Source: Bacteroidota bacterium (GTDB taxonomy: Bacteria > Bacteroidota > Bacteroidia > Bacteroidales > JAGONC01). Taken from it: 64,000 nucleotides of DNA. A program made the translations under genes and the position numbers. Where the stretch lies: the NCBI GenBank assembly GCA_022711405.1, contig JAKLFC010000011.1:8255-72254 (forward strand), read 5' to 3'. How positions within the stretch are numbered: the stretch's first letter is position 1; every line of letters starts with the position of its first letter. Under the pieces are notes generated by a model that ran no database searches, had not been told where the DNA came from, and saw only the letters and a program-made list of their open reading frames with translations. Below are positions 6,564 through 28,530 of this stretch, piece by piece.

Positions 6564-9500
6564 TTACTGTTTAGCAGGGAGATGTTCTGAAAACGCATCA
6601 TCGAACCGCTTATTCAGAATATCGCAGCCGTGGTGGAACATCCGGCCGCTACTGCTCCCGCTGGTCACCTGGAAAACAAGCCGCTGCAGTTCTTTCGGAA
6701 CCGTCAGCAGCGAAAGCGCCTCCAGGTGAATGTCTTCGATACTGCTGCTCCCGTTCAGGCCGAACAAGCCCAGCAGGTTGCTCAATTGCTGGTAGCCGGT
6801 CTGCTCCACCGGACACTTCAGAACCTTTTCAAATGTCTGGATCATCCTCTGGGTGTTGGTGAAACTGCCCCCCGATTCAAAGGGCATGGAAGCCGGAAGG
6901 ATCAGATGGGCGTGCCGCGCGGTATCCGTCATGAAATAATCCTGCACCATCACAAAGTCGGCAACGGACAACCATCCGGCAACCTTCACCTTGTTGCTGG
7001 CGCACCCCAGGGGGTCTTCCCCAAAGATGAACAGGTTCTTCAGCTGCGCATTTTCAAGAAGCTCGTACAGGTTATTGACGGGTCTTGGAATGGAACGGAT
7101 CTGCCACTTTTCCTTTAACCGGTGATGCAGATCCCTGTCGCTGATAGGTATACCGCCGATGCCAAGATCAGGTGAAATCCCCATGTCCGTCAGTCCCTGG
7201 GAATTGTTCTTTTCCTTGAGGACAAGGATGCCATTGGCTGTCTTTCCCAGCTTGCCCGTGAGCATGGCAAGGTTGTAGATTTCCGAGGCAGTGCCGGCGC
7301 AGCATTCCTTTTCCGAGAAGACAATGATGGCGTTCATTTCCCGGTTGATCTCCTTGGCAAACTCAATGACCTGATCCATGATGGGCACTCCCGAAGCGTT
7401 CAGCAAACCGACGAAGTCTTCCTTCAGGAGCTGCTGCCTGTAGGTGTCGAAATTGTCACAGTTATCATGGATGAAGAGACGGTTTTCGAACCCATTGGCC
7501 ACCAGGTAGTAATTAACAGCCCTGATAAAATGATAGTACGATTTGATGATCAGGCTGGAGTCTGCCTTCCGGATCATGGTGCTTTGCGGATGAACGGTGA
7601 CCAGCTCCACAGGGATATGGTACTGGTACTGGGCCTGATTGATCATGAAACCGGCCACGGCATTGTCGCTGTTTATTTCGGCTCCAATCAGGTAGATCTT
7701 GCTGGCATGCCGGATCTGTTCAAAGGGAACATTGTGGGACGAATCAAAATCATATCCTTTCCCCCTGTTCAGGTAATGGAAGCTACTGATATTGTTTGTG
7801 TTGACAGCGGCTCTTGCCATTTTCTGGACCAGGTACAGCTCCTCATTGGTCAGCCGTGCCCCTGCAAAAAATGCATTATCGTCGGCTTTCACACTATGGA
7901 TGCGCTCCCGGATGATCCGGAACGCCTCGTCAAATCCGATTTCGTGAAAATGTCCGTTTTCCCTGTGAAGCGGCCGGGTGATCCGTGAACGGTCATTGAT
8001 GTAGTGATACCCGAATTTGGCGTACCGGCACAGGTTGCCGTCCTTGTTGATCTCTCCTTCCGTGCCGGTGACCCTCATCACAAAACCGTTCTTATGATGA
8101 AGCATGATGTTGCATCCCACCGAGCAATAATTACAGATGGTCTCTACTGGCTGCAGACTGACCGGCCCTGGCTTGAAGGGTACATTTTCGGTGATCGCAC
8201 CTGTGGGGCAGGTGGATATGCAAAGTCCGCACGATTCACAGGTCGTATCCTGCAATGCATTTCCCATACTGGGTGCCACGAAGGTGTCAAATCCCCGGTT
8301 GATCAGTCCCAGTGCATTGGCCCCGACGACCTCCCGGCATATGCGGATACAGCGTGAGCAGAGGATGCATTTGTTGTTGTCGATTTCGATGTAGGGGTGT
8401 CTGAAGTCGATGGCATACTCGTTGAATCCCCCCATATAGCTGTTCTGTTCTGCTTCGTATTCAGAGCAGTACCTTTTCAGGTCGCAGGTGAAATATTCCA
8501 CGCAACCGCACTCCAGGCAGCGTTGTGTTTCGTGCAGGGCCACCTTTTCGCTTGGGTATCCCAGTTCCACTTCATGGAAGTTCATGCGGTCTGCCGGATC
8601 CAGGGTGGGCATCTCTTCTCTGGCCTGATGTGCGAAGTGAGCGGTATAATCCTCCGGAGTTTGTGTTTTGAAATGATCTTTTTTGCTCAGGAATTCTTTT
8701 TTAACGGATTCGACCGGTTTTCCCATCAGGAAAAGGTGGCAGCTGCGGGAGGCGACCTTTGCCTGCCCGATGGCCTGTATGAGGGTGGCCGGTCCGGTGA
8801 CACCGTCGCCCGCGGCAAAGATGGAAGGGATGCCGGTCTGCAGGGTAAGAGGATCTGCATCGATATCTCCCCACCTGTTGAGCTTCAGTTCTGCGCCGTC
8901 ATGGTGTTTGTTGATGCCATCCAGGAATTTGGCATCCGTTTTCTGGCCTATGGCGGCCAGGATATAATCCACTTCCACGTCAAATTCCGAACCTTCAATG
9001 GGTATGGGCCGGCGGCGCCCCGACCTGTCGGGTTCGCCCAGCTGCATTTTCTGGCAGGTGATGGATTTAACCATCCCTTTTTCGTCCTTATTGATCCTTG
9101 CCGGATTCGTCAGGAGCATGTAGTCGACTCCTTCCAGCCTGGATTCATGTATTTCGATGGGATTGGCCGGCATTTCCTTTTCTGTGCGGCGGTAGATGAC
9201 GATCACTTCCTTTGCTCCGCATCGCCGTGCGGTCCGGCAGCAGTCCATGGCGGTGTTACCGCCTCCGATCACCGCAACCCTCTTGCCGCGGAAGTTGAAC
9301 CGTTCACCGGTCAGTTCCATCTGCTTCAGAAAATCGATACCCGAGAACACGTTGGTGGCGTCTTCTCCTTCACAGCCGATGTTGGTGCCCTTTTGAGAGC
9401 CTATGGTGAGGATCACCGCATCGTACTTCCTTTTGATCTCTTCATAATCCTGGTTTTCTCCAAACCTTTTATTGAAATGGATCTGGACACCCAGTTCGGT

Positions 9501-10268
9501 GATGTTGTCCACTTCTTTTTGCAGCAGGTTGTTGGGAAGCCGGTATTCGGGGATACCATACCGGAGCCATCCGCCAGCCAGGGGAGCGGCCTCAAAAAGA
9601 TCTACCTGGTGTCCTTCTTTTTGCAGGAAGAAGCCACAGGAAAGGCCTGCGGGACCTGCTCCGATCACGGCGACTTTTTTCCCGGTGGAAGGCTTTACCT
9701 GTGGTTTCCATTTATTGGGCGATTCAAGATCGAAGTCCGATGCAAAACGTTTCAGGTAATCAATGCCCACCGCATGACCTTCGCTGAGCAGGTTGCGCCG
9801 GCATGCCACTTCGCAGGGTCTGACGCATACCCTTCCGCAGATGGCGGGCAAGGGATTGGTCTCCTTTATTAAAGCGACCGCTTCGTGATACATCCCTTTT
9901 TCGATCAGGGAAATATACCCCTGCACGTCCACCCCGGCCGGACAGGTATCCTTGCAGGGCCCGATGCAGTCCGCATAATGATTGCTGACCAGCAGGTTGA
10001 GCGCCGTCCTTCGTGCGCCGCGTATCCGTTCGTTATCGGTGCAGATCTTCATCCCCTCGCTGATCCTTGTGGAGCAGGAAGGTTGAAGTCCGCGGAAGCC
10101 TTCGACTTCGACCACGCAGAGGTAACAGGACGTATAGGGCACCAGCCGGGGATCATGGCAAAGGGTGGGTATCTGGATGCCATGCCGGCAGGCAAGCTCC
10201 AGGATGGTCTCACCGGGTTTGCCTTTGAGTATCTTTTCGTTGAGAATTATGTTCACTTCATCACTCAT
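6564..10268 (-). CDS. Mosaic redox subunit: 2Fe-2S ferredoxin + GltD-like NAD(P)H flavoenzyme + 2x[4Fe-4S] + NuoG/FdhA-like molybdopterin-oxidoreductase domain without Cys/Sec ligand
   Basis: 1234 aa. CHDPRLVPYTSCYLCVVEV (2Fe-2S). CIGPCKDTCPAG...CGRVCVRPCEVAC (GltD Fe-S region). VAVIGAGPAGLSCG and VAVIGGGNTAMDCCR (two Rossmann motifs). CILCSRCIRIC and CESCGLCISTCP (ferredoxin motifs). CNYCSVGCN (MopB cluster). TNEELYLVQKMARAAVNTNNISSFHYLNRG where formate dehydrogenases have C/U-H. Confidence 0.8.
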   Translation of the reverse strand: MSDEVNIILNEKILKGKPGETILELACRHGIQIPTLCHDPRLVPYTSCYLCVVEVEGFRGLQPSCSTRISEGMKICTDNERIRGARRTALNLLVSNHYADCIGPCKDTCPAGVDVQGYISLIEKGMYHEAVALIKETNPLPAICGRVCVRPCEVACRRNLLSEGHAVGIDYLKRFASDFDLESPNKWKPQVKPSTGKKVAVIGAGPAGLSCGFFLQKEGHQVDLFEAAPLAGGWLRYGIPEYRLPNNLLQKEVDNITELGVQIHFNKRFGENQDYEEIKRKYDAVILTIGSQKGTNIGCEGEDATNVFSGIDFLKQMELTGERFNFRGKRVAVIGGGNTAMDCCRTARRCGAKEVIVIYRRTEKEMPANPIEIHESRLEGVDYMLLTNPARINKDEKGMVKSITCQKMQLGEPDRSGRRRPIPIEGSEFDVEVDYILAAIGQKTDAKFLDGINKHHDGAELKLNRWGDIDADPLTLQTGIPSIFAAGDGVTGPATLIQAIGQAKVASRSCHLFLMGKPVESVKKEFLSKKDHFKTQTPEDYTAHFAHQAREEMPTLDPADRMNFHEVELGYPSEKVALHETQRCLECGCVEYFTCDLKRYCSEYEAEQNSYMGGFNEYAIDFRHPYIEIDNNKCILCSRCIRICREVVGANALGLINRGFDTFVAPSMGNALQDTTCESCGLCISTCPTGAITENVPFKPGPVSLQPVETICNYCSVGCNIMLHHKNGFVMRVTGTEGEINKDGNLCRYAKFGYHYINDRSRITRPLHRENGHFHEIGFDEAFRIIRERIHSVKADDNAFFAGARLTNEELYLVQKMARAAVNTNNISSFHYLNRGKGYDFDSSHNVPFEQIRHASKIYLIGAEINSDNAVAGFMINQAQYQYHIPVELVTVHPQSTMIRKADSSLIIKSYYHFIRAVNYYLVANGFENRLFIHDNCDNFDTYRQQLLKEDFVGLLNASGVPIMDQVIEFAKEINREMNAIIVFSEKECCAGTASEIYNLAMLTGKLGKTANGILVLKEKNNSQGLTDMGISPDLGIGGIPISDRDLHHRLKEKWQIRSIPRPVNNLYELLENAQLKNLFIFGEDPLGCASNKVKVAGWLSVADFVMVQDYFMTDTARHAHLILPASMPFESGGSFTNTQRMIQTFEKVLKCPVEQTGYQQLSNLLGLFGLNGSSSIEDIHLEALSLLTVPKELQRLVFQVTSGSSSGRMFHHGCDILNKRFDDAFSEHLPAKQ

Positions 10269-10295
10269 GGAAAATTCTCCTCATACCTTCAGTAG

Positions 10296-12074
10296 TTAGG
10301 ATAACCTGATCGCTTCGAACTTGCATTTAGAAAAGCATACACCGCACCTGATGCATTTTTCCTGGTGAATGAAATGCACCTGTTTCCGTTCGCCGGTGAT
10401 GGCTTCCACCGGACAATTCTTTGCACAGACCATGCATCCGGTACACTTGTCAGGGATGACCTCGTAGGTCAGCAGCTGCTTGCAGGCCTTGGCCGGACAT
10501 TTTTTATCCCGGATATGGGCTTCGTATTCGTCCCGGAAATATTTGATGGTGGTCAGCACCGGATTGGGGGCAGTCTGTCCCAGGCCGCACAGGGAGCTTT
10601 CCTTGATCTGGAAGGCAAGGTCCTGCAGCCGTTCGATATCACCCTGTTCTCCTTTGCCTTCGGTGATGCGGGTGAGTACTTCGAGCATTCGTTTGGTTCC
10701 GATGCGGCAGAAGGTACATTTCCCGCAGGATTCTTTCCGTGTGAAATCAAGGAAAAATTTGGCCACATCCACCATGCAGGTGGTTTCGTCCATGACCACC
10801 ATTCCTCCTGATCCCATGATGGCGCCTGTAGCGGTAACGGAGTCATAATCGATGGGCGTATGGGCCAGGTACTCAGGTATGCAGCCTCCTGAAGGGCCTC
10901 CCAGCTGCACTGCCTTGAATTTCTTGCCATCGCGGATGCCGCCGCCCAGCTTGAAGATGATGTCATTGATGCTGATACCCATGGGTACCTCCACCAGTCC
11001 CGACCGCCGTATTTTTCCTGCCAGTGCGAAGACCTTGGTCCCCTTGCTTTTCTCCGTGCCGTACCTGGCATAGGCTTCCGCGCCGTTGAGGATGATCCAC
11101 GGAATGTTGGCATAGGTCTCCACGTTGTTGATGTTGGTCGGCTTTTTCCATAGGCCGGAAGAGGCGGGAAACGGAGGCCGTTTGCGCGGCATTCCTCTTT
11201 CACCTTCCACAGAAGCGATGAGGGCTGTTTCTTCCCCGCAGACAAAAGCGCCCGCGCCTTCTTTAATATGAATGTCGAAATCAAAACCCTGTATCCCCAG
11301 GATGTTGTTCCCCAGGTAACCTTTCCGGCGGGCCTGTTCAAGGGCTATATTGAGCCGCTTGATGGCCAGCGGGTACTCCGCCCGGCAATAGATCACTCCC
11401 CCGGTAGCCTCGATGGCATAGGCCCCGATGATCATCCCTTCGAGCACGGAATGCGGGTCCCCCTCCAGTACCGACCGGTCCATGAACGCTCCCGGATCCC
11501 CTTCATCCGCATTGCAGATGATGTACTTTTCGGTAGCTTTGTTATCATTGGCAAATTTCCACTTCAGCCCTGTCGGGAAACCTCCTCCGCCACGGCCGCG
11601 CAATCCTGAGGAAATGACCGTCTGGACCACATCCATGCGGGAGATCCGCTGGCCGGCTATTTTTTTTATCGCACGGTATCCCTGCCTGGCTTCATACTCG
11701 TCGATGTTCTCAGGATCAATATAACCACAGTTTCTCAGCGTGATCTTGATCTGGTTCTGCATGAAATCATTATCCGCGGTAGGAAAGAGATCTGTCTGGA
11801 CCACATGCTCTTTTACCGGGGTATGATGGATGACATGCCGGTCGATGATCTCCACGGCCCTGATCTCATCGATTTCCCCATACAGGTAGGAACCTGTCTG
11901 GTCAATGATCTCCACCAGCGGTTCGCGGTAACACATCCCGATACAGCTGGTCTTCTTAAGATCAAAATCAAGGTTCTCAGCCTGGCGCAACGCCTGGATC
12001 TTTTCGTAGGTTTTCCCTGCACCGGCTGCGATCCCGCAGCTTCCCAGCCCGACAATGACTTTTATTTTTTCCAT
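10296..12074 (-). CDS. NuoF/HydB-like NAD(P)H-binding FMN iron-sulfur flavoprotein
   Basis: 592 aa. Thioredoxin-like 2Fe-2S N-domain, GRGGGGFPTGLKWKF, ESCGKCTFCRIG, and C-terminal ferredoxin motifs CTGCMVCAKNCP and CIRCGVCFSKC. Confidence 0.85.
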   Translation of the reverse strand: MEKIKVIVGLGSCGIAAGAGKTYEKIQALRQAENLDFDLKKTSCIGMCYREPLVEIIDQTGSYLYGEIDEIRAVEIIDRHVIHHTPVKEHVVQTDLFPTADNDFMQNQIKITLRNCGYIDPENIDEYEARQGYRAIKKIAGQRISRMDVVQTVISSGLRGRGGGGFPTGLKWKFANDNKATEKYIICNADEGDPGAFMDRSVLEGDPHSVLEGMIIGAYAIEATGGVIYCRAEYPLAIKRLNIALEQARRKGYLGNNILGIQGFDFDIHIKEGAGAFVCGEETALIASVEGERGMPRKRPPFPASSGLWKKPTNINNVETYANIPWIILNGAEAYARYGTEKSKGTKVFALAGKIRRSGLVEVPMGISINDIIFKLGGGIRDGKKFKAVQLGGPSGGCIPEYLAHTPIDYDSVTATGAIMGSGGMVVMDETTCMVDVAKFFLDFTRKESCGKCTFCRIGTKRMLEVLTRITEGKGEQGDIERLQDLAFQIKESSLCGLGQTAPNPVLTTIKYFRDEYEAHIRDKKCPAKACKQLLTYEVIPDKCTGCMVCAKNCPVEAITGERKQVHFIHQEKCIRCGVCFSKCKFEAIRLS

Positions 12075-12099
12075 AGGAGCATGGATAGGATTGTACCAA

Positions 12100-12642
12100 T
12101 CAGTTATTTTCTTTGATGCGGATATCCCGTATGATCCGCACAGCTTCCTTGCCTGTCAGTTTTCCAAAGACCTCTCCGGCCACCATCATAACGGGAGCCA
12201 GCGAACAGCAACCCAGGCATGCCACCGATTCAAGGGTAAACAGACCATCCGGGGTGGTCTCGCCATCTTTGACGTTAAGGGCTTCTTTCAGCGAGTCGGT
12301 GATCGTGTTGGCATTCTGCACATGGCAGGCGGTGCCGTGGCAGACCTTGATGATGTTCTTACCCACCGGGTGGAGCCGGAACTGTGCGTAAAAGGTGGCC
12401 ACACCATACAGATCGCTCAGCTTCAGTCCCGTGGCATCGGAAATCCTTTCAAATACATTCCAGGGTATATAGCCATAGATCTCCTGAGCACCCTGAAGCA
12501 AGGGAATGAGGCTGCCCTTTTTCCCCCGGTATTTCTCAAGCAGGGGCTCCAAAAGAGAGAGATCCGCAGGGTCCTGCTCCTGTTTTACCGTTTCCTGGTG
12601 TATCCGTGTAATTCGCATGGTTTCATGAATTGAAATGGACAT
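12100..12642 (-). CDS. NuoE/HydC-like [2Fe-2S] subunit
   Basis: 180 aa. CHGTACHV ... CLGCCSLAP. 25 bp upstream of the NuoF-like gene. An alternative start at ATG 12618 is possible. Confidence 0.8.
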   Translation of the reverse strand: MSISIHETMRITRIHQETVKQEQDPADLSLLEPLLEKYRGKKGSLIPLLQGAQEIYGYIPWNVFERISDATGLKLSDLYGVATFYAQFRLHPVGKNIIKVCHGTACHVQNANTITDSLKEALNVKDGETTPDGLFTLESVACLGCCSLAPVMMVAGEVFGKLTGKEAVRIIRDIRIKENN

Positions 12643-12662: not shown

Positions 12663-12670
12663 CAAAGGTG
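12663..12670 (-). promoter_or_regulatory. Near-consensus -7 box CACCTTTG upstream of the NuoE-like operon
   Basis: About 20 nt upstream of ATG 12642. The first base deviates from TAnnTTTG. Confidence 0.3.
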
Positions 12671-12710
12671 CTTTAAAATGGAGGAATTATTGCCGGACGC
12701 CAGCTTTTTA

Positions 12711-12718
12711 TACTTTTG
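12711..12718 (+). promoter_or_regulatory. Bacteroidota -7 box TACTTTTG (TAnnTTTG) upstream of the DoxX gene
   Basis: The box ends 19 nt before ATG 12738. Confidence 0.4.
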
Positions 12719-12737
12719 CCTTGCAATAGGATTCCGT

Positions 12738-13220: not shown

Positions 13221-13283
13221 TAGTTATTCGTTGTTATTCATTGTCATTCAAATAATGACCACAACTAACCACAACTAACCGCA
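13221..13283. repeat. 10-bp phased repeats: TAGTTATTCG/TTGTTATTCA/TTGTCATTCA, then ACCACAACTA x2, abutting ATG 13284
   Basis: Read directly. Contains the palindrome GTCATTcaaatAATGAC. Confidence 0.8.
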
Positions 13284-14822: not shown

Positions 14823-14833
14823 TCAGCAGCATG

Positions 14834-14856
14834 TCCTGAGGGCGAAGCCCGAAGGA
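14834..14856 (+). terminator. Imperfect hairpin TCCTGAGGGC-GAA-GCCCGAAGGA just after the stop at 14822
   Basis: Read directly. No T-tract. Flanked by AGTCAGC-type heptamers. Confidence 0.3.
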
Positions 14857-14872
14857 TCAGCAGTCAGTAGTT

Positions 14873-14927
14873 TTGGAATTTGGATATTGGGATTTGTTTG
14901 GATTTTGGAAACTGGGATTTGGAATTT
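14873..14927. repeat. GGAATTTGG-family 7-bp periodic repeat (copy 1)
   Basis: TTGGAATTTGGATATTGGGATTTGTTTGGATTTTGGAAACTGGGATTTGGAATTT. Related copies at 45656-45707 (same orientation) and 45991-46043 (inverted). Confidence 0.85.
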
Positions 14928-14937
14928 ATACTGAATC

Positions 14938-15993: not shown

Positions 15994-16075
15994 CGCAAAA
16001 TTTTCACCGAACCGTCTTAAAATTCCCTTCTTTTTATAAATTAGCCTGTCGAACCAGGATGTAAACTCACCGGAT

Positions 16076-16912: not shown

Positions 16913-16924
16913 AGTGATGTTTTT

Positions 16925-17022
16925 CCTCCTTGCGCCTCGGTGTATTCCTCTGTGCGCCTCTGTGGTTAAATGTATTTTTACCACAGAGGCGAAGGAGGTT
17001 GTCACAGAGGCGCTCAGAGGGT
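16925..17022. repeat. TTAACCACAGAGG-family palindromic element (copy 1)
   Basis: ..CCTCTGTGCGCCTCTGTGGTTAAA-tgtattt-TTACCACAGAGGCGAAGGAGG..CACAGAGGCG..; the arms pair. Confidence 0.8.
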
Positions 17023-17059
17023 GTAAACAGGAATCTGTATCAATAAAAACAGGCATACT

Positions 17060-18550: not shown

Positions 18551-18557
18551 TCCAGGA

Positions 18558-18601
18558 CCCCTCCCCAATCCCTCCCCTAAGGGGAGAGGCCAGGGGTGGG
18601 G
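18558..18601. repeat. C-rich/G-rich hairpin element CCCCTCCCCAATCCCTCCCCTAAGGGGAGAGGCCAGGGGTGGGG
   Basis: Read directly, 8 nt after the stop at 18550. Related to the element at 43735-43776. Confidence 0.75.
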
Positions 18602-18602
18602 T

Positions 18603-18634
18603 AACAATTTAACAATTTAACAATTCAACAATTT
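18603..18634 (+). repeat. (AACAATTT)x4 octamer array, 7 nt upstream of ATG 18642
   Basis: AACAATTT AACAATTT AACAATTC AACAATTT, read directly. Confidence 0.9.
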
Positions 18635-18641
18635 AACCGGA

Positions 18642-19427
18642 ATGATGAAAAAACTAAGTTTCTTATTAATGGCAATAGTTATGGTTGCAGCATGCAAGAG
18701 TCCATCAAAAGTGACACAACAGACAACGACCCCGGGAAAAGTCAAAATTGAAGCAAAAATGGCGGCGCCCAACACCCTTACACAGGCCGAGATCGATGAA
18801 GGCTGGCAGCTGCTTTTCGACGGGAAGAGCACCCAACACTGGCGGGGCTATAACAAACCCGATTTCCCCAAAGGATGGGAGGTGGTGGATGGCACCCTCC
18901 ATGTGATCGGTTCGGGCAGGGGAGAAGCAGGCCAGGGCGGTGACATCATCACCAGGGAGAAGTTCAGGAACTTTGAGCTGTCACTGGAATGGATGGTGGA
19001 TACCGGAGGGAACAGCGGTATCTTCTACCTGGCACGGGAAGTCGACGGCGAGCCCATCTGGAAAAGCTCTCCTGAAATGCAGATCCTGGATAACTTCAAT
19101 CACCCGGATGCCAAGCTGGGAATAAAAGGAAACCGCCAGGCAGGTGCGCTCTATGACCTGATCCCGGCTGTGCCGCAGAACTTCAAGGGTCCCATGCAGT
19201 GGACCCCCGTGAAGATCATGGTGTATAAGGGTACCGTCGTGCACTATATGAACGGTGAACAGGTGCTGGAGTACCATCTATGGACAGATGACTGGAAATC
19301 CATGTGTGCCGGCAGCAAATTCAAGGATTACGACATGTTCATCAACACTGCGGAAGAAGGCTATATCGGACTTCAGGATCATGGGGATGATGTGTGGTTC
19401 AGGAACATAAAGATCAGGAAGATGTAA
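18642..19427 (+). CDS. DUF1080 (3-keto-disaccharide hydrolase-like) lipoprotein
   Basis: 261 aa. Lipobox LLMAIVMVAAC. GNSGIFY, EMQILDN and GLQDHGDDVWFRNIKI are typical of the DUF1080 concanavalin-like fold. Confidence 0.75.
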   Translation: MMKKLSFLLMAIVMVAACKSPSKVTQQTTTPGKVKIEAKMAAPNTLTQAEIDEGWQLLFDGKSTQHWRGYNKPDFPKGWEVVDGTLHVIGSGRGEAGQGGDIITREKFRNFELSLEWMVDTGGNSGIFYLAREVDGEPIWKSSPEMQILDNFNHPDAKLGIKGNRQAGALYDLIPAVPQNFKGPMQWTPVKIMVYKGTVVHYMNGEQVLEYHLWTDDWKSMCAGSKFKDYDMFINTAEEGYIGLQDHGDDVWFRNIKIRKM

Positions 19428-19430
19428 CGA

Positions 19431-19522
19431 TATCAGATAAACCGATTAACCGATATCGGATATCTGATTTGATTTACGATTTAAATCAAAAATCAAATAT
19501 CGGTCAATCGGTTAATCAGATA
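19431..19522. repeat. ~92-bp nested imperfect palindrome between convergent DUF1080 and nfnB genes
   Basis: TATCAGATAAACCGATTAACCGATAT vs the reverse complement of ATATCGGTCAATCGGTTAATCAGATA (23/26 match). Inner pairs TTTGATTT/AAATCAAA and ATCAGATA/TATCTGAT. Confidence 0.7.
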
Positions 19523-21325
19523 TCATTTCCTTGTTCGCGGATGGGTTTTGGATAATTTCCGGTGCATGGCCCTGGCAGCTATCCGTCCTGCACCCATGGC
19601 CAGGATGACGGTAGCGGCCCCGGTGACGATATCCCCGCCTGCATAGACGAATTCCTTGGTGGTCTCCATGGTTTCGGCATTGACCTGTATATATCCCCTT
19701 GCATCGAGTTTCATATCCGGGGTGGAGTGGAAGATGACTGGATTGGGCCCATTGCCAACGGCTACGATGGCCATGTCACATTCCAGGATAAAATTGGAAC
19801 CTTCGATGGGTATCGGCCTTCTGCGGCCAGATGCGTCGGGTTCTCCCAACTGCATCTTGATGCATTCCATTCCCTTGATCATCTTGTTGTCGGTACCCAG
19901 AAAACGTATCGGATTGGTGAGCAGCCGGAATTTGATGCCTTCCTGGCCTGCATGATGGACCTCCTCAGCACGTGCAGGCAGCTCCTGCCGTGAACGGCGG
20001 TAAATGATGGTCACCTCCGAAGCTCCCGTTCGGATGGCCGTCCGGGCGCAATCCATCGCCACATTGCCCCCGCCGATCACAGCCACCTTATTTCCTTTCG
20101 GTTTTGGTGTGTCATACTCAGGGAAGCGGTAAGCCTTCATCAGATTCATCCTGGTCAGGTATTCATTGGCTGAGAAGACATTACCCAGGCTTTCCCCTTC
20201 CACGCCCAGGAACCAGGGCGCTCCGGCACCCACACCAATAAAAACGGCATCGAAATGCTCCAGTAATTCGTCAATGGTCAGGATGTTACCAATGATATGG
20301 TTCATTTCAACCCTGACTCCCATCTTTCTTAAAAAATCGATCTCAAATTTCACGATGCTTTTTGGCAGACGGAATTCGGGTATACCGTACGTGAGCACCC
20401 CTCCCGGTTCATGAAGTGCCTCATAGATCGTGACTTCATACCCAAGCTGGCGCATATCGGCTGCGACCGTCAATCCGCCGGGTCCCGATCCGACCACTGC
20501 AATCCTCTTCCCGGTGCTGGTCCTGATCTCGGGAATCTTCACCCTGTCGGATTTCCGTTCCCAATCAGCCACAAAACGTTCGAGCCTTCCGATAGCGACG
20601 GGTTCATCCTTTTTGCCAAGGATGCAATTCGCTTCACATTGCGATTCCTGTGGACAAACCCTCCCGCAGATGGAAGGAAAGACGTTGGCTTCCTTGATTT
20701 TCTTTATGGCAGCATCGAACTTCTCTTCTGCAATCAAGGCTACAAACGTTGGGATATCGATATTGACCGGGCAGCCTTCCACGCACCCCGGCTTCTTGCA
20801 CTGCAGACAGCGGCCGGCTTCCAGTAGAGCCAGCTCCGTAGTGTACCCGTAAGGCACTTCCTGAAAGTTACTGGTCCTTACCAGCTGGTCCTGCTCGGGC
20901 ATCGCCTGGCGCGGAATCTTCAGTTTGATGAACCGCTCATCCTCTCTGGTGATACCGTGCCAGTGACATCCGTATTTCAAACAAAAATAGAAGGGGATCA
21001 GCTTGGCATAGGCCGACACGATAGCTTCTCCAACCTTTGATCCGCAATCCGCACACCTGACCTCCGTGTTGATAATACTTTTCTTGCACTGAGGGCAGAT
21101 CAGATCATCAAGCACTTCTCCGTCATTGAGCGGATAGGAAGCTTTTACTTCAAAGACATCCAGGTAAGGACTCAGCCTGATTTCAAAATCATTTTCATGG
21201 TATTTCGCATTGAAAAGAAGACTCCTTTCATTTTGCCTCTCAACGTTGAAGGTTTTCTTACAGTGAGGACAGTAAAAACTGAGGAATGTTTTGAACTTTA
21301 AATAACGTACATCCTGCTCTAACAT
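19523..21325 (-). CDS. nfnB: NfnB/GltD-like NADPH-dependent flavin iron-sulfur oxidoreductase with ~140-aa Cys-rich N-terminal extension
   Basis: 600 aa. CLQCKKPGCVEGCP, CGRVCPQESQCEANC, VAVVGSGPGGLTVA, VAVIGGGNVAMDCAR, YAGGDIVTGAATVI. The N-terminus carries CPHC, CPQC, CADC and C..GCHWHG. Confidence 0.8.
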   Translation of the reverse strand: MLEQDVRYLKFKTFLSFYCPHCKKTFNVERQNERSLLFNAKYHENDFEIRLSPYLDVFEVKASYPLNDGEVLDDLICPQCKKSIINTEVRCADCGSKVGEAIVSAYAKLIPFYFCLKYGCHWHGITREDERFIKLKIPRQAMPEQDQLVRTSNFQEVPYGYTTELALLEAGRCLQCKKPGCVEGCPVNIDIPTFVALIAEEKFDAAIKKIKEANVFPSICGRVCPQESQCEANCILGKKDEPVAIGRLERFVADWERKSDRVKIPEIRTSTGKRIAVVGSGPGGLTVAADMRQLGYEVTIYEALHEPGGVLTYGIPEFRLPKSIVKFEIDFLRKMGVRVEMNHIIGNILTIDELLEHFDAVFIGVGAGAPWFLGVEGESLGNVFSANEYLTRMNLMKAYRFPEYDTPKPKGNKVAVIGGGNVAMDCARTAIRTGASEVTIIYRRSRQELPARAEEVHHAGQEGIKFRLLTNPIRFLGTDNKMIKGMECIKMQLGEPDASGRRRPIPIEGSNFILECDMAIVAVGNGPNPVIFHSTPDMKLDARGYIQVNAETMETTKEFVYAGGDIVTGAATVILAMGAGRIAARAMHRKLSKTHPRTRK

Positions 21326-21337
21326 AGTTCAATGCCT

Positions 21338-22162
21338 TTAGCGTATGGAAAACAACAGGGATGTCTTTTCATCGGCCAGATACATATTATTTCTTTTTTC
21401 CAGTTCCTCAAAATCGACCTGGAAACCATCAAAATCAGGTCCATCCACACAGCAGAAGCGTATTTCATCGTTGATCTTGACCCTGCATCCGCCGCACATG
21501 CCCGTACCGTCGATCATGATGGGATTCAGGCTGACCATCGTGGGAACATTGTATTGCCGTGTAAGCCGGATGATATTCTTCATCATGGGTATGGGGCCAA
21601 TGGCATACACCAGTTTGATGTCGTACCTTTCTTCCAGGTATTTTGCCAGGGGACCCGTCACAAAACCCCGTTCGCCATAGGTGCCATCATCCGTGGTGAT
21701 GACCAGTTCATCGCAAAGGATTTCCATCTCATTTTCCAGGATGAGCATATCTTTTGTCTTTGAACCGATGATGCCAATGACATAGTTACCCGATTCCTTG
21801 AATGCCTTGGTAATATGATGCAGGATCGCTACTCCCGTTCCACCGCCGACCATGACGACAGTGCCCTTTTTATCTGTGTCTGCAGCCCTGCCCAGAGGAC
21901 CAACCACATCCTTGATGAAATCTCCCTCATTAAGGGATCGCATCAGAGCGGTAGTCTTGCCCACCACCTGGAAGATGATGGTAATGATTCCCGCAAACTC
22001 GTCTTTATCAGCCACAGTCAAAGGTATTCGCTCACCGGTGTCATTGACGCGGATGATGACAAATTGTCCCGCTTTTACTTTCCTGGCGATTTTTGGCGCT
22101 TCGATATCGAAACGGATGATCGTCCCCATCGCCATCTCTTCTTTTCGTTTGATCTGAAACAT
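21338..22162 (-). CDS. nfnA: NfnA-like (sulfide/dihydroorotate dehydrogenase-like) FAD/NAD-binding [2Fe-2S] subunit
   Basis: 274 aa. GQFVIIRV..GERIPLTV, VMVGGGTGVA, and the C-terminal cluster GMCGGCRV...CCVDGP. Confidence 0.8.
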   Translation of the reverse strand: MFQIKRKEEMAMGTIIRFDIEAPKIARKVKAGQFVIIRVNDTGERIPLTVADKDEFAGIITIIFQVVGKTTALMRSLNEGDFIKDVVGPLGRAADTDKKGTVVMVGGGTGVAILHHITKAFKESGNYVIGIIGSKTKDMLILENEMEILCDELVITTDDGTYGERGFVTGPLAKYLEERYDIKLVYAIGPIPMMKNIIRLTRQYNVPTMVSLNPIMIDGTGMCGGCRVKINDEIRFCCVDGPDFDGFQVDFEELEKRNNMYLADEKTSLLFSIR

Positions 22163-22196: not shown

Positions 22197-23066
22197 TTAC
22201 CATTCCAGGCTATCTTCGATCTTCATTTCATAAAGATCGTCATCACTCAGGCCATGCCAGCGGCAGCCTTTCTTCGTACAAATGTAAAACGTAATGAACT
22301 TGGTCCGGGCAGAGATATTGATCCTGGCAACCGGAGAATGGCACCAGTCGCAGTGTTTGTCTTCCTGCCGGAGGCTTTGATGGCAATGCGGGCACTGAAT
22401 ATCCTTTAGGGTCTCGTGTTCCCTGAGAAATACCGTTGATTTTGAAGTGAAAACATTCAGGTAAGGGCTGAGCATGATCACTCCCGTTTCATTTTTTTCG
22501 TTTGTAATATCCAGTTTGATCATGTCATCCTCGATAAGGCTTTTTAAACAATGAGGACAATATGTCTGAAGAAATGTTCCTGATTCAATGATCTCCTTGA
22601 ATTCATCCACTTTTTTCTCCTCGATGAAGACAGGCCTGACCTCAGGTTTTTGAGACATTCTGCCCCTGAATCCATATTCCTGGTACATCCTTCTCAGGGC
22701 ATCACCCAGGTCGGTGAATTCCACGGCGTGGTTTTTACATCCCACCCTGGAACAAATGGCGACTCTTCCCCCCGTTTCCAGGTGAAAATGCACCATCGGA
22801 GCTCCACAGGTCAGGCATTCCACATTGGAGAGGATCTGCTGCTGACAGTGCGGGCAGTAAAAACCGGCAACTTTCCCAACCGGAAGCTCCATATCACAAA
22901 TATAATTATAACTGCCGTAGACAGAGCTCAGATGGATGGTGCCCCGCTGTCCCCCCATCTCGATAAGCAGCCTGATGCTGGCTTCATTGTCCACCAATTG
23001 CTCATCGTCCATGAGCATTTTCCCGCATATCGGGCATTTGACCCTGAGTGAAAGAAATTCGTACAT
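22197..23066 (-). CDS. Cys-rich protein with two tandem copies of the module found at the NfnB N-terminus
   Basis: I prefer ATG 23066 (MYEFLSLRVKCPICGK...) over the supplied 23120, because a TATATTTG box lies at 23090-23097. Copy 1: CPIC...CPHC-x9-CLTC...C..GCKNH. Copy 2: CPHC...CPHC-x9-CDWC...C..GCRWHG. Confidence 0.7.
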   Translation of the reverse strand: MYEFLSLRVKCPICGKMLMDDEQLVDNEASIRLLIEMGGQRGTIHLSSVYGSYNYICDMELPVGKVAGFYCPHCQQQILSNVECLTCGAPMVHFHLETGGRVAICSRVGCKNHAVEFTDLGDALRRMYQEYGFRGRMSQKPEVRPVFIEEKKVDEFKEIIESGTFLQTYCPHCLKSLIEDDMIKLDITNEKNETGVIMLSPYLNVFTSKSTVFLREHETLKDIQCPHCHQSLRQEDKHCDWCHSPVARINISARTKFITFYICTKKGCRWHGLSDDDLYEMKIEDSLEW

Positions 23067-23089
23067 AATGATTGTAATTAAACGTGGTA

Positions 23090-23097
23090 CAAATATA
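23090..23097 (-). promoter_or_regulatory. -7 box TATATTTG upstream of the Cys-rich gene / nfnAB
   Basis: 23 nt upstream of ATG 23066, inside the 97-bp gap after the stop at 23164. Confidence 0.45.
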
Positions 23098-23163
23098 ATG
23101 GTTACAAAAGCACTTAGCAAGTCACTCTTTCGTTCCTGCCTGTGATGCCGGATACATCCCGCC

Positions 23164-26100
23164 TTATTGCCATGTGATCACAGAAATCCTTTTTTTCCCG
23201 TCCATCTTGATCATCAGGGGCTTTTCGAAACGGACATGCCGGAAGAACCGGGCCTTTAGTACCTGGGGCTGCTGATCCAGCACATCCCAGCGGATGAACG
23301 TCCTGGGATTGTCATCCTGGATCGAAAAATACCCAACGTTCATGGAAGTTACATTATGAAAGAAATGGGATCCGGATGATGCATCCAGGGGGAATCCTTC
23401 CAGGCTGGTTTCAACGATGATCTTTGCATTGGATATCTGAGGCCAGTTCACCGGGATGCCAATCCAGCGGTCGCGTGTTCCCCACCTGCCGGGTCCGATC
23501 AGTACGTACTTTTTCCCTTCCTGACCCATCTGTCTGTTCAGCTGTTCTATTTCAGCAGCCATCTCCACCGTCTTCGATTTATCAAAAAGATTCCTGTCCA
23601 CGTAGATGACATCGTAAATAGTGGATATCATCCCGTTGCCCATTCCTTTTTCCGTGTACAGAAGGATCGACTCCCTGCTGATCTCATCCATGTCCACATT
23701 GTAATCCTGTGAGCTCCCCAAAAGAGGTTTGATCTGAAGCAGGTAAAAGGATGCCTTGTAATCCCTGTCCTTATTCAAATCTACCGCAAATTCGATTTCA
23801 ACGGGAGATCCAAGGGCTTCTTTCACCACATCGAGCGTAACCCCGATGGTTTGCGCCAATGGTATGTAATTGTATTTCAATATGTCGGCAAAGTTTACGA
23901 TACGGGGACCGGGTTTGCTGAGCCCTGGCATGATGGTGTTGTTTTCCACATTATACACCGAGGCGCAATGTGAAAGGGTTCCATGGCGCTCTGCAGCATC
24001 GATTTCGAGCCTGACCAGCCCGGCGGTGTCACCCTCCATCAGGTTTATCTTTCTCTTCTTCATATCCACTGCAAAAAATTCGAGCTGGGAGTTCTGAAAC
24101 TGTGCCTTGGGAGTATTGATCTCCACATTGGGGTATTTTGGCGAAAACCGGTGTGCTTTTTCTCCTTCCACTACATATTTTCCCAGTCCGAGTGCCAGCA
24201 CGGCAAATCCTTCCTCCGGCTTCATGTAGGAAAAAGGATAGTAATTGTAGGATTGCGCTACACCGCTTATGTGCGGATAGTACGCATCTTCATAGCGGTT
24301 CCCTACGACCTCCTGCAGTACGACGGCCATTTTTTCCTCTTCCAGCTTGTAATTGATGGAATGGATGTATCCCCTTGCCACGGGTGAGAATACCGAGGCG
24401 AACACCAGCTTGATGGCATCCATCAACTGAGTAAGCCGCTCGTTGGGATCGGGATGGTTATTGGGCAGCAGATACGTTTCAAAGATACCTGCAAAAGGCT
24501 GCATGAGCGAGTCCTCGAACAATCCCGACGACCGGACGGCCAGCGGCCTGTTGATCAGCTTAAGGTATGTCTTCAGCCTTTTGATGAGTGTTTCTGTAAG
24601 ATGACCCTTCAGGAACCATTTTTTGATCTCCTCATAGTCCTCTATGTTGAGAATCCTTTCGTAGAGCTTGTTCCTGATCATGAAGTATTCGAATTCCTCC
24701 GTGCCGATGACCGAAGTGATGGGTGTTTTGATGTTGATGTTGGGCACGGAGCCCGTGAAGTCGAAGTTATAGATCAGGGTATTGATGAATGCCAGACCGC
24801 GTCCTTTGCCTCCCAGCGATCCTGCCGACAAACTGACCACGTTGGTCTCATCGGTGATCGCCGATTCTTCAAATGGTACCACCTTCCCCTTATTCTGCTC
24901 GTCCCTGAACTGCTGGATGACACTGAGCAGGTACTGCCGGATATGTTCCACCGATTTGAACTCGTCCACCTTCTTGGGATGCAGTATCCGTGCTGCCTGT
25001 ATCTCCCCCCGGGCCATCAGCCAGAGCGAAAAATGATCATGCCGGGCGTGATAAAGCAGCGAATCACCGGGAATGGTCCTGAGCTGTTTCTCAAATTCCT
25101 TCAGCGACTGTGCAACGCCGATCTGGTTGCCTTCATTATCCCTGAAAAAGAAACTTCCGAATCCAAGGTAGTGCGTGATAAAGCTTTTCAGATCCTGCAA
25201 CAGGCTATCCGAATTTTTATCGATATAGGTCACCTTGAGCTCATAGGCAGTTTTTTCATTTTCTCTTTCTGACGACTGAAGAATGACCGGCAGCCGGGGA
25301 AGTTCCCTGCGGATCTGCTGTATGATCTCCACCCCTGCATTTTCAAGCGGTATGCCCTGTTTGTCGAACTTCATGTCGGTGATCAGGCAGAGCATATGGT
25401 CGCTGTATTTGCTGACAATCAGCATGGCCTGCTCATAGCTGGTAGCCAGCAGGATCTTGGGCCTGACCCGTAGCTTCAGTACTTTATATAATTCGTCGCT
25501 ACTAACGTCCGTGATGATCTGACGTGTCTGCTCCATGACAATATGGTACAGCAGGGGCAGGTACCGCGAGTAATATTTCGGTGAATCTTCCACCAGGAGG
25601 ATGATCCTTACCAGTCCGACCTCTGTGTCATTGGCTACGTTGATCTTATCTTCCAGGTACTTGACCATGGCAAAAAACATCTTCGATTCACCGTTCCAGA
25701 CGAACAAGTTGTCGATGCACCGTGTCAGATCCTGATTATCCTCGAACAGGGCCAGATCCTTATCATTGTTCAGCAGAAGGAACACGGGTATATAGGGGAA
25801 TTCCCGTTTTACCAGGCAGCTTAGTTCAATGGGTGTGGTCTTGTCCACTCCTATCATAAGAATGACCAGGTCAAAGTGTTTCTTGCGAAGCTGTTCCATG
25901 GCTTCATCAATGGTCGACACGCCGGTGATCCTCGGAATGGAGGTCAGGTTCAGCTGCTGGAACTCACCCAGGACATACTCGGCAAATTTTCCTTCCTTCT
26001 CAATGTTATAGGCGTCGTACAGACTGGCTACCAGCAGGATCTCTTTCACCTTGAAAGGCATCAGGTCATGGTAGATGTCACGGTTTATATTACTATGGGT

Positions 26101-27111
26101 CAGATAGTTATGAAGCAGATGCCGGCTGTATTTAGGTTGATCCGGAGAGGATTTGTATTTATCCAGGATCGTCTGATCGGAAAGGGTCTTCTTCAGGATT
26201 GCTTTTCCTTTGAGGCTGTTCAGGTATCCGGCGATCAATTCAGACAGGTTGTGTAACAGTTCACGTTCTTCCTTCAGGAAAGGGCCCTCATCAGAGCGGG
26301 GGAAATCCTTCAGGTAAAAGATCTCGATGGATCCTTCCTGGTTGTCGATGGTAAGAAATGGTTGCCGTTGGGTCCATCCTGTTTCCCGGAAATTGGGAGA
26401 GGTGAATTCCATGCCGGCGAAGCGGATCCTTGCGACGGTGAATTCAGGATACTGCCAGGCCTGGGGGAGGATCATGACGATCTGGGAGAGCGAATCCTCA
26501 ATGGGTTTGCCCTCTTTAAGAATACCCGTTGTCCGGTTGATACAGGCCATCTCCTTCAGTCGTTCCCTTGTCTCATAGGCGTTTTCCAGACCCTTCACGC
26601 TGTTGAGGTAGCCCACCAGGATACCGCTGACGTTGATGATCAGATCGCGCTCCTCTTTAAGAAAGGGACCTTCATCCGACTGGGGGAACTCTTTAAGGTA
26701 GTGTACCTCAATGGATCCCCTTTTTCCGTCAATGGTTTCAAAATCCTGCTTCTGTGCCCACGGAGTTTCTTCAAAGTCAACACTGTGATAATAGTGCTTG
26801 TCATAAATGATCCTTACCACGGTGTATTCAGGATACTGCCAGGCATCCTCGAGAATGAGGCATACCCCGTTCAGTGTTTCCTCCAGCGGACGGTTGGAAC
26901 GAATCAGGGCGATCGTTTTGTTGATGGCAGTCAGTTCCTTGATCCGCTCCTGCTTCTCGGCCAGCAGTTTTCTGAACTGTTCAGGATCAATCTGGATATT
27001 CTTCACCACAGATGGCTTCTGTTCGCTCATGATCTTTTTTTTATCAAAAATAGAGGACTTTGACCTATCCTTTATCGGTCGACAAAAAATATCATTTTTT
27101 TTCTGACTCAT
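23164..27111 (-). CDS. Large paralogue of the 3577-6552 protein: two tandem N-terminal sensor-like repeats + pseudo-receiver + receiver + PPDK_N-type ATP-grasp
   Basis: 1315 aa. Collinear with the 991-aa protein: IILLVEDSPKYYSRYLP vs IILVEDSIRFYSSYLP; LITDMKF vs IITDVSY; GGKGRGLAFI; AVRSSGLFEDS..FAGIFETY; GPGRWGTRDRWIGIPVNWPQIS vs GPGRWGSADPWLGIPVKWPQIS. The start could instead be the internal MSEQKP. Confidence 0.75.
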   Translation of the reverse strand: MSQKKNDIFCRPIKDRSKSSIFDKKKIMSEQKPSVVKNIQIDPEQFRKLLAEKQERIKELTAINKTIALIRSNRPLEETLNGVCLILEDAWQYPEYTVVRIIYDKHYYHSVDFEETPWAQKQDFETIDGKRGSIEVHYLKEFPQSDEGPFLKEERDLIINVSGILVGYLNSVKGLENAYETRERLKEMACINRTTGILKEGKPIEDSLSQIVMILPQAWQYPEFTVARIRFAGMEFTSPNFRETGWTQRQPFLTIDNQEGSIEIFYLKDFPRSDEGPFLKEERELLHNLSELIAGYLNSLKGKAILKKTLSDQTILDKYKSSPDQPKYSRHLLHNYLTHSNINRDIYHDLMPFKVKEILLVASLYDAYNIEKEGKFAEYVLGEFQQLNLTSIPRITGVSTIDEAMEQLRKKHFDLVILMIGVDKTTPIELSCLVKREFPYIPVFLLLNNDKDLALFEDNQDLTRCIDNLFVWNGESKMFFAMVKYLEDKINVANDTEVGLVRIILLVEDSPKYYSRYLPLLYHIVMEQTRQIITDVSSDELYKVLKLRVRPKILLATSYEQAMLIVSKYSDHMLCLITDMKFDKQGIPLENAGVEIIQQIRRELPRLPVILQSSERENEKTAYELKVTYIDKNSDSLLQDLKSFITHYLGFGSFFFRDNEGNQIGVAQSLKEFEKQLRTIPGDSLLYHARHDHFSLWLMARGEIQAARILHPKKVDEFKSVEHIRQYLLSVIQQFRDEQNKGKVVPFEESAITDETNVVSLSAGSLGGKGRGLAFINTLIYNFDFTGSVPNINIKTPITSVIGTEEFEYFMIRNKLYERILNIEDYEEIKKWFLKGHLTETLIKRLKTYLKLINRPLAVRSSGLFEDSLMQPFAGIFETYLLPNNHPDPNERLTQLMDAIKLVFASVFSPVARGYIHSINYKLEEEKMAVVLQEVVGNRYEDAYYPHISGVAQSYNYYPFSYMKPEEGFAVLALGLGKYVVEGEKAHRFSPKYPNVEINTPKAQFQNSQLEFFAVDMKKRKINLMEGDTAGLVRLEIDAAERHGTLSHCASVYNVENNTIMPGLSKPGPRIVNFADILKYNYIPLAQTIGVTLDVVKEALGSPVEIEFAVDLNKDRDYKASFYLLQIKPLLGSSQDYNVDMDEISRESILLYTEKGMGNGMISTIYDVIYVDRNLFDKSKTVEMAAEIEQLNRQMGQEGKKYVLIGPGRWGTRDRWIGIPVNWPQISNAKIIVETSLEGFPLDASSGSHFFHNVTSMNVGYFSIQDDNPRTFIRWDVLDQQPQVLKARFFRHVRFEKPLMIKMDGKKRISVITWQ

Positions 27112-27147
27112 GGAAGATTTTAGTTAATATTGCTCGCCTTTTTCTGA

Positions 27148-28530
<1,383 letters not shown>

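Follow-up and report, generated by a model that had tools for sequence, protein, structure and literature searches.

We analysed a stretch of 64,000 nucleotides of a Bacteroidota bacterium (GCA_022711405.1, contig JAKLFC010000011.1, forward-strand positions 8,255 to 72,254), called the window below, and in it an open reading frame (ORF) of 1315 amino acids (aa), the long paralogue, together with the genes that surround it (Table 1). A second member of the same family, the 991-aa short paralogue, is encoded in the window as well. An earlier note on this DNA had described the two proteins as collinear, and BLASTP bore this out: a single alignment of 971 columns with 12 gaps joined aa 349-1312 of the long protein to aa 22-987 of the short one at 37% identity, and because of this alignment the two are regarded as collinear paralogues. 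Every motif quoted for the long protein was found in its translation (DLVILMIGVD, IILLVEDS, LITDMKF, ILQSSE and the block GPGRWG..WIGIPVNWPQIS...GSHFFHN); the short paralogue has GTHFFQN in place of GSHFFHN. The neighbouring genes were also as described. The long paralogue lies upstream, on the same strand, of a Cys-rich gene and of nfnA and nfnB, which NCBIfam and PDB matches identified as genuine, and an NADP-dependent glutamate dehydrogenase (GDH) gene, gdhA, is divergent from it (NF006929, 789 bits).

Relatives numbered at least 597 in species-representative genomes, and the best 80 loci were analysed, each with as much as 10 kb on either side, as far as its contig reached (individual loci are cited as L001 and so on). 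In the long paralogue the order of domains is two sensor-type repeats, a pseudo-receiver, a receiver, a linker, an ATP-grasp domain and a C-terminal domain of 170 aa. The note had called this paralogue the larger one; it is indeed longer, and the extra ~320 aa were shown to hold two copies of a 128-aa repeat, 47% identical to each other. A hidden Markov model (HMM) built from both copies matched repeat 1 with a domain E of 8e-79, an own-model match by construction, and the N-terminal 338 aa matched no Pfam family at E<=10. Copy number varied from one to four among otherwise collinear orthologues (P0006, P0085, P0094, P0012), which accounts for orthologue lengths of ~1160, 1288, 1417 and 1552 aa; the short paralogue has zero copies. 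Since the repeat recurs in abundant stand-alone proteins of ~192 aa and in fragments where it is fused to PAS or HisKA domains, it is a predicted sensor module.

An AF2 model of aa 330-1315 (pLDDT 78) contained two consecutive (beta-alpha)5 units. Foldseek matched this model to PleD, the best match for its tandem-receiver part (Table 1), to several single receiver domains (TMt 0.65-0.74) and to PPDK (1kbl/1dik, E 4e-5). The Met-substituted pseudo-receiver that the note had recognised in the motif DLVILMIGVD is present, and M419 was invariant in an alignment of 34 sequences. In the receiver that follows, D509, D579, S613, S614 and K632 were invariant in two alignments, of 12 and of 34 sequences, that cover both paralogue groups, E508 was kept in 33 of 34 sequences, and the codons were confirmed in the DNA; these residues we take, from knowledge of the motif, to occupy the corresponding positions of the CheY pocket. 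The Pfam model Response_reg scored weakly in both paralogues, reaching 25.6 bits (E 1.4e-5) on the long one, below its cut-off of 30.2. The similarity of the linker to DUF5752, obtained with Pfam on the isolated segment, was likewise weak and borderline. No DHp/HisKA or HATPase_c domain was found by Pfam in either paralogue.

PPDK_N was present in both proteins (E 2e-38 in the long, 2e-36 in the short), and the ATP-grasp elements GGK.RG, VRSS..EDS.QPFAG, EIE and LLQI.P were invariant across both paralogue groups. Among solved structures, the best sequence match of the ATP-grasp profile was rifampin phosphotransferase (5hv6/5fbs, E 4e-6); ~140 ATP-grasp residues aligned, the VRSS..ED...FAG..TY motif among them. 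The family is large, belongs mainly to Bacteroidota and is misnamed 'phosphoenolpyruvate synthase' or 'PEP/pyruvate-binding protein' in databases. Such names, together with 'pyruvate, phosphate dikinase' and the presence of PPDK_N, would suit a metabolic enzyme akin to phosphoenolpyruvate (PEP) synthase or PPDK that is regulated by its receiver domain. Against this, NCBIfam PEP-synthase models reached 15-46 bits where the cut-offs are 598-1063, matching ~100-200 residues; Pfam found no PEP-utilizers domain (PF00391) and no PEP/pyruvate TIM-barrel domain (PF02896); and beyond the ATP-grasp the protein has 170 more aa, which form a domain unlike either of the two that are missing. The predicted domain content thus contradicts the database name, the long paralogue is not a PEP synthase on this showing, and we give a metabolic role of this kind almost no credence.

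Table 1. Features of the long paralogue and of the genes around it; coordinates are window positions.
Feature	Coordinates	Strand	Remarks
Long paralogue ORF	23164..27111	(-)	1315 aa from first ATG; probable start M28 (27030), giving 1288 aa
Sensor-type repeat 1 (aa 45-174)	26590..26979	(-)	HMM from the two window copies
Sensor-type repeat 2 (aa 176-303)	26203..26586	(-)	HMM from the two window copies
Pseudo-receiver (aa ~350-475)	25687..26064	(-)	Met419 replaces the phospho-acceptor Asp; Foldseek PleD E 4e-7
Receiver (aa ~500-640)	25192..25614	(-)	Intact pocket E508, D509, D579, S613/S614, K632
Linker (aa 641-760)	24832..25191	(-)	DUF5752 (PF19027) E 4.6e-5, 23.3 bits vs cut-off 23
PPDK_N-type ATP-grasp (aa 765-1145)	23677..24819	(-)	PF01326 E 2.3e-38, profile positions 3-324 of 328
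Family-specific C-terminal domain (aa 1146-1315)	23167..23676	(-)	His1249 codon 23365-23367
Spacer with Bacteroidetes-type -7 box TATATTTG (23097-23090)	23067..23163	(-)	97 bp, upstream of the Cys-rich gene
Cys-rich double Zn-ribbon gene	22197..23066	(-)	289 aa from ATG 23066; Pfam Zn-ribbon matches
nfnA	21338..22162	(-)	NF004862 373 bits vs cut-off 220; PDB 5jca_S E 4e-88, 4ylf_A E 4e-73
nfnB	19523..21325	(-)	TIGR01316 573 bits vs cut-off 472; PDB 4ylf_B E 6e-169, 5jca_L E 2e-153
NADP-specific gdhA	27175..28530	(+)	NF006929 789 bits vs cut-off 536; divergent from long paralogue
stnABC-type genes	6564..12642	(-)	nuoE-like 12100-12642, nuoF-like 10296-12074, stnC-like 6564-10268
Short paralogue	3577..6552	(-)	991 aa, without sensor repeats; 11 bp downstream of stnC

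The C-terminal domain was modelled on its own by AF2 (pLDDT 88.6, pTM 0.88). With this model Foldseek found nothing significant in the PDB (best E 0.024, TM<=0.31), and PPDK, PEP synthase and enzyme I were absent from the 50 matches listed. In isolation its 170 aa matched no Pfam family at E<=10, and a profile of the domain found no relevant match among PDB sequences. Comparison by hhalign with the swivel region of E. coli PpsA gave a probability of 0.2%; PpsA alone served here, as the collected loci contained no PEP synthase/PPDK gene for a multi-sequence profile. The segment 'IIVETS...SGSHFF' resembled 'aIVTe.GG.TSHAA', and the element order and the pattern 'IVE..(loop)..SH' loosely recall the swivel domain, a resemblance to be taken as a lead only.

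The domain is widespread. A HMMER search of 1.84 billion representatives found it in 2183 clusters at 50% identity, and in the 150 best hits listed it was C-terminal except in three proteins of 1523-1654 aa with two matched stretches. Among 150 representatives GxGRWG, a Glu, SxGxHFFxN and a Tyr were at least 95% conserved, and a His (His1249 here) was conserved in all (100%). In the model this His follows a low-confidence loop, which is predicted to be flexible. Some proteins of ~570 aa carry the domain without receivers. The three double-domain proteins (P0311, P0334, P0338) contain it twice, which suggests that an ATP-grasp/C-terminal unit without receivers became fused to a full-length protein of the family. 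Tandem pairs of family members were found outside Bacteroidota, in Riflebacteria and Cloacimonas (L068 13815-15320, L085 12957-15866).

Promoter boxes were assigned with the Bacteroidota TAnnTTTG -7 motif instead of a sigma-70 model; a scan for sigma-70 promoters and terminators gave sites no more numerous than in shuffled sequences, and its promoter model is the wrong one for Bacteroidota. Because most orthologues have 1288 aa, including the closest (L170, 91% identity), and because a -7 box, TATTTTTG at 27052-27045, stands 14 nt before the ATG of M28, the long gene probably starts at M28. The 63-bp gap to gdhA given in the note holds only with M1 as the start, and the probable start at M28 makes it 144 bp. 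On the other side, an MYEF start common to six orthologues, three of them with in-frame stops upstream, confirmed the start of the Cys-rich gene at ATG 23066, so that the note was right about the 97-bp gap and the TATATTTG box within it. This box is kept, with its surroundings, in the close relatives L006 and L170. The terminator scan called no terminator-like hairpin in this spacer. A conserved operator in the divergent spacer between gdhA and the long paralogue was sought by k-mer counting and rejected as too weak: 19 such spacers gave AT-rich words and two 9-mers, GCAATATTA and ATTATTAAC, that recur in 5-6 of the 19. The window spacer (27031-27174) contains GCAATATTAAC. The recurrent words may mark a regulator site or may just reflect shared ancestry.

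Two GltD-type systems had been reported in the window, one beside each paralogue. The system beside the long paralogue stands as named: NfnA-type and GltD-like NfnB-type subunits are encoded side by side, the best PDB matches of both being NfnAB of T. maritima (4ylf) and NfnI of P. furiosus (5jca), and NfnAB activity is predicted. The system beside the short paralogue is more exactly a StnABC-type transhydrogenase. Its 1234-aa protein matched StnC of Sporomusa ovata (PDB 8oh5_C, E 2e-221) and 9bov_A (E 9e-241) and has the Pfam domains Fer2_4, Fer4_20, Pyr_redox_2, Fer4_Nqo3 and Molybdopterin; the ORFs upstream of its gene were 64-78% identical to L001 genes with PF01257 and PF01512. A StnC-type fusion (2Fe-2S, GltD and NuoG/FdhF-like parts) after NuoE- and NuoF-like subunits is the Stn architecture (PMC10482914). 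By predicted activity, then, what the note took for the first GltD system is an electron-bifurcating transhydrogenase of the StnABC type (Sporomusa-type Nfn). Since the 1234-aa protein matches S. ovata StnC and stands in the Stn architecture, NfnAB-type and StnABC-type genes are both present in this organism, within a span of 25 kb.

At its N-terminus NfnB has a Cys-rich extension of 135 aa (20921-21325, minus strand) that is absent from solved NfnB structures; alignments with these begin near aa 133. The extension resembles the second half of the Cys-rich protein (22197-23066, minus strand) at 40% identity (E 6e-26), and in that protein the same module of four Cys pairs is present twice through internal duplication; the module thus occurs three times around nfnAB. 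In L006, L015, L023, L063 and L170, too, the Cys-rich gene is found with nfnAB downstream of the long paralogue.

Neighbours in other genomes were called by tblastn with the window proteins and by all-against-all clustering of flanking ORFs. The counts that follow for the long paralogue refer to 65 long-type loci from different species and to neighbours within 10 kb. A GDH gene was the commonest neighbour (31 of 65), followed by the other paralogue (24 of 65, usually long then short and 23-110 bp apart), genes for a KorAB-type 2-oxoacid:ferredoxin oxidoreductase (19 of 65, recognised by the TIGR03710 alpha subunit), a NarL-type response regulator (17 of 65) and Nfn or Stn genes (10 of 65). Among the 41 long-type loci whose flanks both reach at least 3 kb, 39 had at least one of these five. 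The KorAB-type genes were encoded on the strand of the long paralogue and preceded it, immediately so in most of the 19 loci, and the NarL-type regulator was directly adjacent to the long paralogue in most of its 17. The number expected by chance is about 1-2 loci for each of GDH, KorAB and Nfn/Stn, an estimate that uses generous copy-number assumptions and ignores shared ancestry.

Relative to the long paralogue, GDH genes lay upstream in divergent orientation, downstream in the same direction and behind an overlapping NarL-type regulator, downstream in convergent orientation, or after the short paralogue, where the gene encodes a second isoenzyme of the PRK14030 subfamily. At four loci (L017, L020, L052, L127) the paralogue pair is flanked by two GDH isoenzymes, an upstream divergent one 74-85% identical to the window gdhA and a PRK14030-type one, 59-65%, after the short paralogue. 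Adjacency to GDH was kept through at least four rearrangements. The neighbours share a theme: reductive formation, or else oxidation, of 2-oxoglutarate by a ferredoxin enzyme, its amination by NADPH-GDH, and supply of NADPH from ferredoxin and NADH by Nfn or Stn. The common denominator is the 2-oxoglutarate/glutamate/NADPH node and not GltD-like proteins as such. Three Pfam-annotated short-type examples had a glutaminase gene adjacent, an ammonium transporter gene near, or nothing relevant; the glutaminase and transporter neighbours count in favour of this node.

The note had suspected a link between the family and GltD/NfnB-like or NuoEF genes, to be counted against random expectation. Counted in this way, Nfn/Stn genes were enriched at long-type loci (10 of 65 observed, about 2 expected), and of the loci where 3 kb or more of downstream sequence was available (49), 7 have an Nfn/Stn-type cluster that starts within 400 bp of the long-paralogue stop codon. 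The link is therefore non-random, but it is neither dominant nor family-wide: GDH, the other paralogue, KorAB and the NarL-type regulator are all commoner neighbours of the long paralogue, Stn genes lay upstream at 3 of 80 short-type metagenomic loci, and no Nfn/Stn gene was found at the 15 loci of a third, sensor-less subgroup. The GltD-type link of the family is real but minor.

Nfn/Stn genes accompany the long paralogue in several arrangements. In L001, L007, L008 and L110 the long paralogue is followed by stnABC and then by the short paralogue; the sequence of L010 has the same order but breaks off ahead of the short paralogue. The gap from the long paralogue to nuoE is 17 bp in L001. L015 and L023, and in part L012 and L105, have the long paralogue, the Cys-rich gene and nfnAB, then 2.7-2.9 kb, then stnABC. 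In L054 the long paralogue is followed by a distantly related nfnAB (46-49% identity) without the Cys-rich gene, and in L055 by nuoEF. In L170 a five-gene cluster on the opposite strand (14959-21842) is inserted, with the Cys-rich gene on one side and another Cys-rich gene plus nfnAB on the other; it encodes NuoE-like, NuoF-like, NuoG/molybdopterin-like (775 aa), NfnA-like (271 aa) and GltD-like (465 aa) proteins and looks like an unfused Stn/Nfn hybrid.

From these arrangements (compare L012, L015, L023 and L105), the two systems of the window are one conserved supercluster that runs from the long paralogue through the Cys-rich gene and nfnAB to stnABC and the short paralogue. The note had judged two paralogues, each beside a GltD/NfnB-type enzyme within 25 kb, unlikely to be chance; the two pairs are not independent coincidences, being the two ends of this supercluster. 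In the window the supercluster is split by a 6.9-kb block of sugar-oxidoreductase genes (12630-19427), which looks like an insertion. The block comprises a DoxX gene and genes for three GFO/IDH/MocA oxidoreductases, a sugar-phosphate-isomerase-like TIM-barrel protein and a 3-keto-disaccharide hydrolase; one of the oxidoreductases and the TIM-barrel protein have twin-arginine translocation (TAT) signals. The corresponding cluster of L001 (long, stnABC, short) also carries an insertion, an AbiEii/DUF6922 toxin-antitoxin-like pair with small ORFs (20503-21637) between a rubrerythrin gene, which follows stnC, and the short paralogue. A beta-propeller gene lies downstream of the short paralogue in the window, and its adjacency to family members was not conserved in the other loci.

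Such adjacency to nfnAB and stnABC could be inherited synteny without functional meaning. The order uppS-bamA-skp-murI-korAB...fabD-folE is indeed a conserved housekeeping gene order in one clade, and Nfn/Stn genes were found at the few long-type and short-type loci counted above (10 of 65 and 3 of 80). However, Nfn/Stn clusters stand beside the long paralogue in at least five arrangements, those of L054 and L170 included, GDH stays adjacent through its rearrangements, and intergenic distances are 11-65 bp in several loci. Because the associations persist through rearrangement, they point to more than inherited synteny, and we consider that explanation very unlikely.

Bacteroidota, to our knowledge, are without the NtrBC-type nitrogen regulators of Proteobacteria, and how they coordinate ammonium assimilation with the balance of ferredoxin, NADH and NADPH is poorly understood. 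The long paralogue unites sensor repeats, a phosphorylatable receiver and an ATP-using domain in one protein and keeps company with a paralogue and often with a DNA-binding response regulator; for this reason we read it, with moderate confidence, as a cytoplasmic signal-transduction enzyme, a receiver- and ligand-gated regulator of the 2-oxoglutarate/glutamate/NADPH node that acts by ATP-dependent phosphotransfer. That it regulates this metabolic node of glutamate, 2-oxoacids and NADPH is probable; gating by ligand and by phosphorylation of Asp579, phosphotransfer through His1249, and the targets are what we infer. In the proposed mechanism, binding of a ligand to the repeats and phosphorylation of Asp579 would gate the ATP-grasp domain. 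That domain would phosphorylate a target at the expense of ATP, with His1249 in the C-terminal domain as the probable relay. The output would bear on the expression or activity of gdhA, the KorAB-type enzyme, NfnAB, StnABC and the short-paralogue genes and, in many genomes, on the NarL-type regulator. In the window the long paralogue is either the head of the Cys-nfnAB genes or lies just upstream of them, and the short paralogue closes the stnABC operon.

The NarL-type regulator bears on a different proposal, that the protein is an unconventional sensor kinase or phosphorelay in which the ATP-grasp and the C-terminal domain with its His loop autophosphorylate, much as PEP synthase and PPDK do at the His of their swivel domain, and so replace a HisKA/HATPase_c kinase. 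The regulator is an immediate neighbour (the 17 of 65 long-type loci given above), either divergent at ~100-170 bp or overlapping or abutting downstream (-7 to +6 bp) and followed by gdhA. No HisKA_3-type kinase was found within 10 kb of the NarL-adjacent loci, a weak negative obtained with two query kinases, or in the Pfam-annotated loci L001, L004 and L005; since none lies near the regulator-adjacent loci by this weak test, there is room for the long paralogue itself as the kinase. Repeats like those at the N-terminus are elsewhere joined to PAS/HisKA sensor kinases, and the His that follows the flexible, low-confidence loop is fully conserved. On the other hand, a search with two HisKA_3 queries would miss other kinase classes, the window is without a NarL-type regulator, the protein's own receiver suggests that it receives phosphoryl groups rather than originates them, and neither sequence nor structure resembles known phospho-His carrier domains. 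We know of no precedent for His-to-Asp transfer from a PPDK-type system. Weighing these points, we think a kinase of this sort unlikely. More doubtful still is the extended form, in which both paralogues are a new class of sensor kinases whose ATP-grasp loads the His for transfer to the protein's own receiver and to the orphan NarL-type regulator, making a master regulator that would control the assimilation of ammonium and the supply of NADPH, through gdhA, korAB, nfnAB and stnABC, in anaerobic Bacteroidota; if true, this would be a two-component-like pathway without any HisKA/HATPase_c kinase.

The ATP-grasp/C-terminal module might instead be a post-translational modifier that (pyro)phosphorylates GDH, KorAB, NfnAB, StnABC or a small molecule and so switches flux. 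Coupling at the level of operons is to enzyme genes rather than to regulators in the window and in L001, L007, L008, L010 and L110, which would fit, and among solved structures the ATP-grasp is closest to rifampin phosphotransferase, an enzyme that phosphorylates a small molecule. In Bacteroides thetaiotaomicron, GDH activity is reportedly affected by trans-acting genes downstream of gdhA, as the title of a 1996 paper has it. The protein gave no evidence, however, of a substrate-binding domain of known type, and a reversible inactivation of GDH in B. fragilis found no support in a literature search. A modifier of this kind also seems to us rather improbable.

Several observations weigh against a regulator of the 2-oxoglutarate/glutamate/NADPH node, the reading that we favour. 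Literature searches returned no biochemical or genetic data for any family member. The 97-bp spacer contains a -7 box, so that transcription of nfnAB may be independent of the long paralogue. The C-terminal domain, tried as a divergent PEP-utilizers swivel phospho-His domain, failed with Pfam, the PDB profile, Foldseek and hhalign, and because it failed every such test, His-mediated transfer through it would be by analogy only. The window gave no tblastn match to representatives of the NarL-type regulator, KorA or KorB, and no histidine kinase was present among the large window ORFs scanned. The closest short orthologues (65-72% identity) are mostly without recurrent neighbours, and the 15 loci of the sensor-less subgroup had korAB in three and serine/glycine genes in four with otherwise nothing recurrent. 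Finally, the loci are phylogenetically related, so that the counts overstate independence, and part of the korAB/fabD/murI synteny is plain vertical inheritance.

The favoured reading offers a concrete, testable candidate regulator for the 2-oxoglutarate/glutamate/NADPH node in Bacteroidota, and with the family comes a new domain, its histidine invariant, that invites characterisation. Full-length members number in the thousands, and the family is mis-annotated as PEP synthase. The annotation of the neighbouring clusters is corrected as well, to the electron-bifurcating transhydrogenases NfnAB and StnABC in one supercluster bracketed by two paralogues. Elsewhere in the window, and unrelated to the long paralogue, three consecutive large secreted proteins with type IX secretion C-terminal sorting domains are encoded at 50810-60984 on the plus strand; those of 1774 and 1048 aa also have lamin-tail (LTD) and PKD domains.

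Literature searches found the C-terminal domain, the variable sensor repeats and the gene-neighbourhood link undescribed, and those on PPDK_N plus Response_reg and on response-regulator censuses found no functional study. One census lists the combination of a receiver with PPDK as 'Bacteroides-like', in one sentence on architecture. This is apparently the same domain combination, which has thus been seen before; the entry gives the architecture alone, with no function, C-terminal domain, sensor repeats or gene-neighbourhood link.

With PEP synthase and PPDK the long paralogue shares the N-terminal ATP-grasp and its GGK, VRSS..ED..FAG, ExE and LQxRP-type motifs. It differs from them in having neither a swivel phospho-His domain nor a TIM barrel, in place of which stands the unmatched 170-aa domain, and in carrying two receivers and the sensor repeats in front. 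Rifampin phosphotransferase, whose structures were deposited as 'phosphoenolpyruvate synthase', is a PPDK_N enzyme without the PEP-binding barrel and has swivel His and rifampin-binding domains. Those two domains are undetectable in the long paralogue, rifampin phosphotransferase is in turn without receiver or sensor domains, and its model NF041857 scored 17 bits on the long paralogue against a cut-off of 999. In Proteobacteria the NtrBC-PII system controls ammonium assimilation genes in response to 2-oxoglutarate/glutamine status. This is the physiological niche proposed here for the long paralogue, a functional analogy drawn only from gene neighbourhood, as there is no homology beyond the receiver domain. 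PleD-type regulators share with the long paralogue a tandem of receiver and pseudo-receiver before an enzymatic output. In the long paralogue, unlike in these, the pseudo-receiver comes first, sensor repeats stand at the N-terminus, and the place of GGDEF is taken by an ATP-grasp and a new domain. Like them, it is a response regulator with an enzymatic output.

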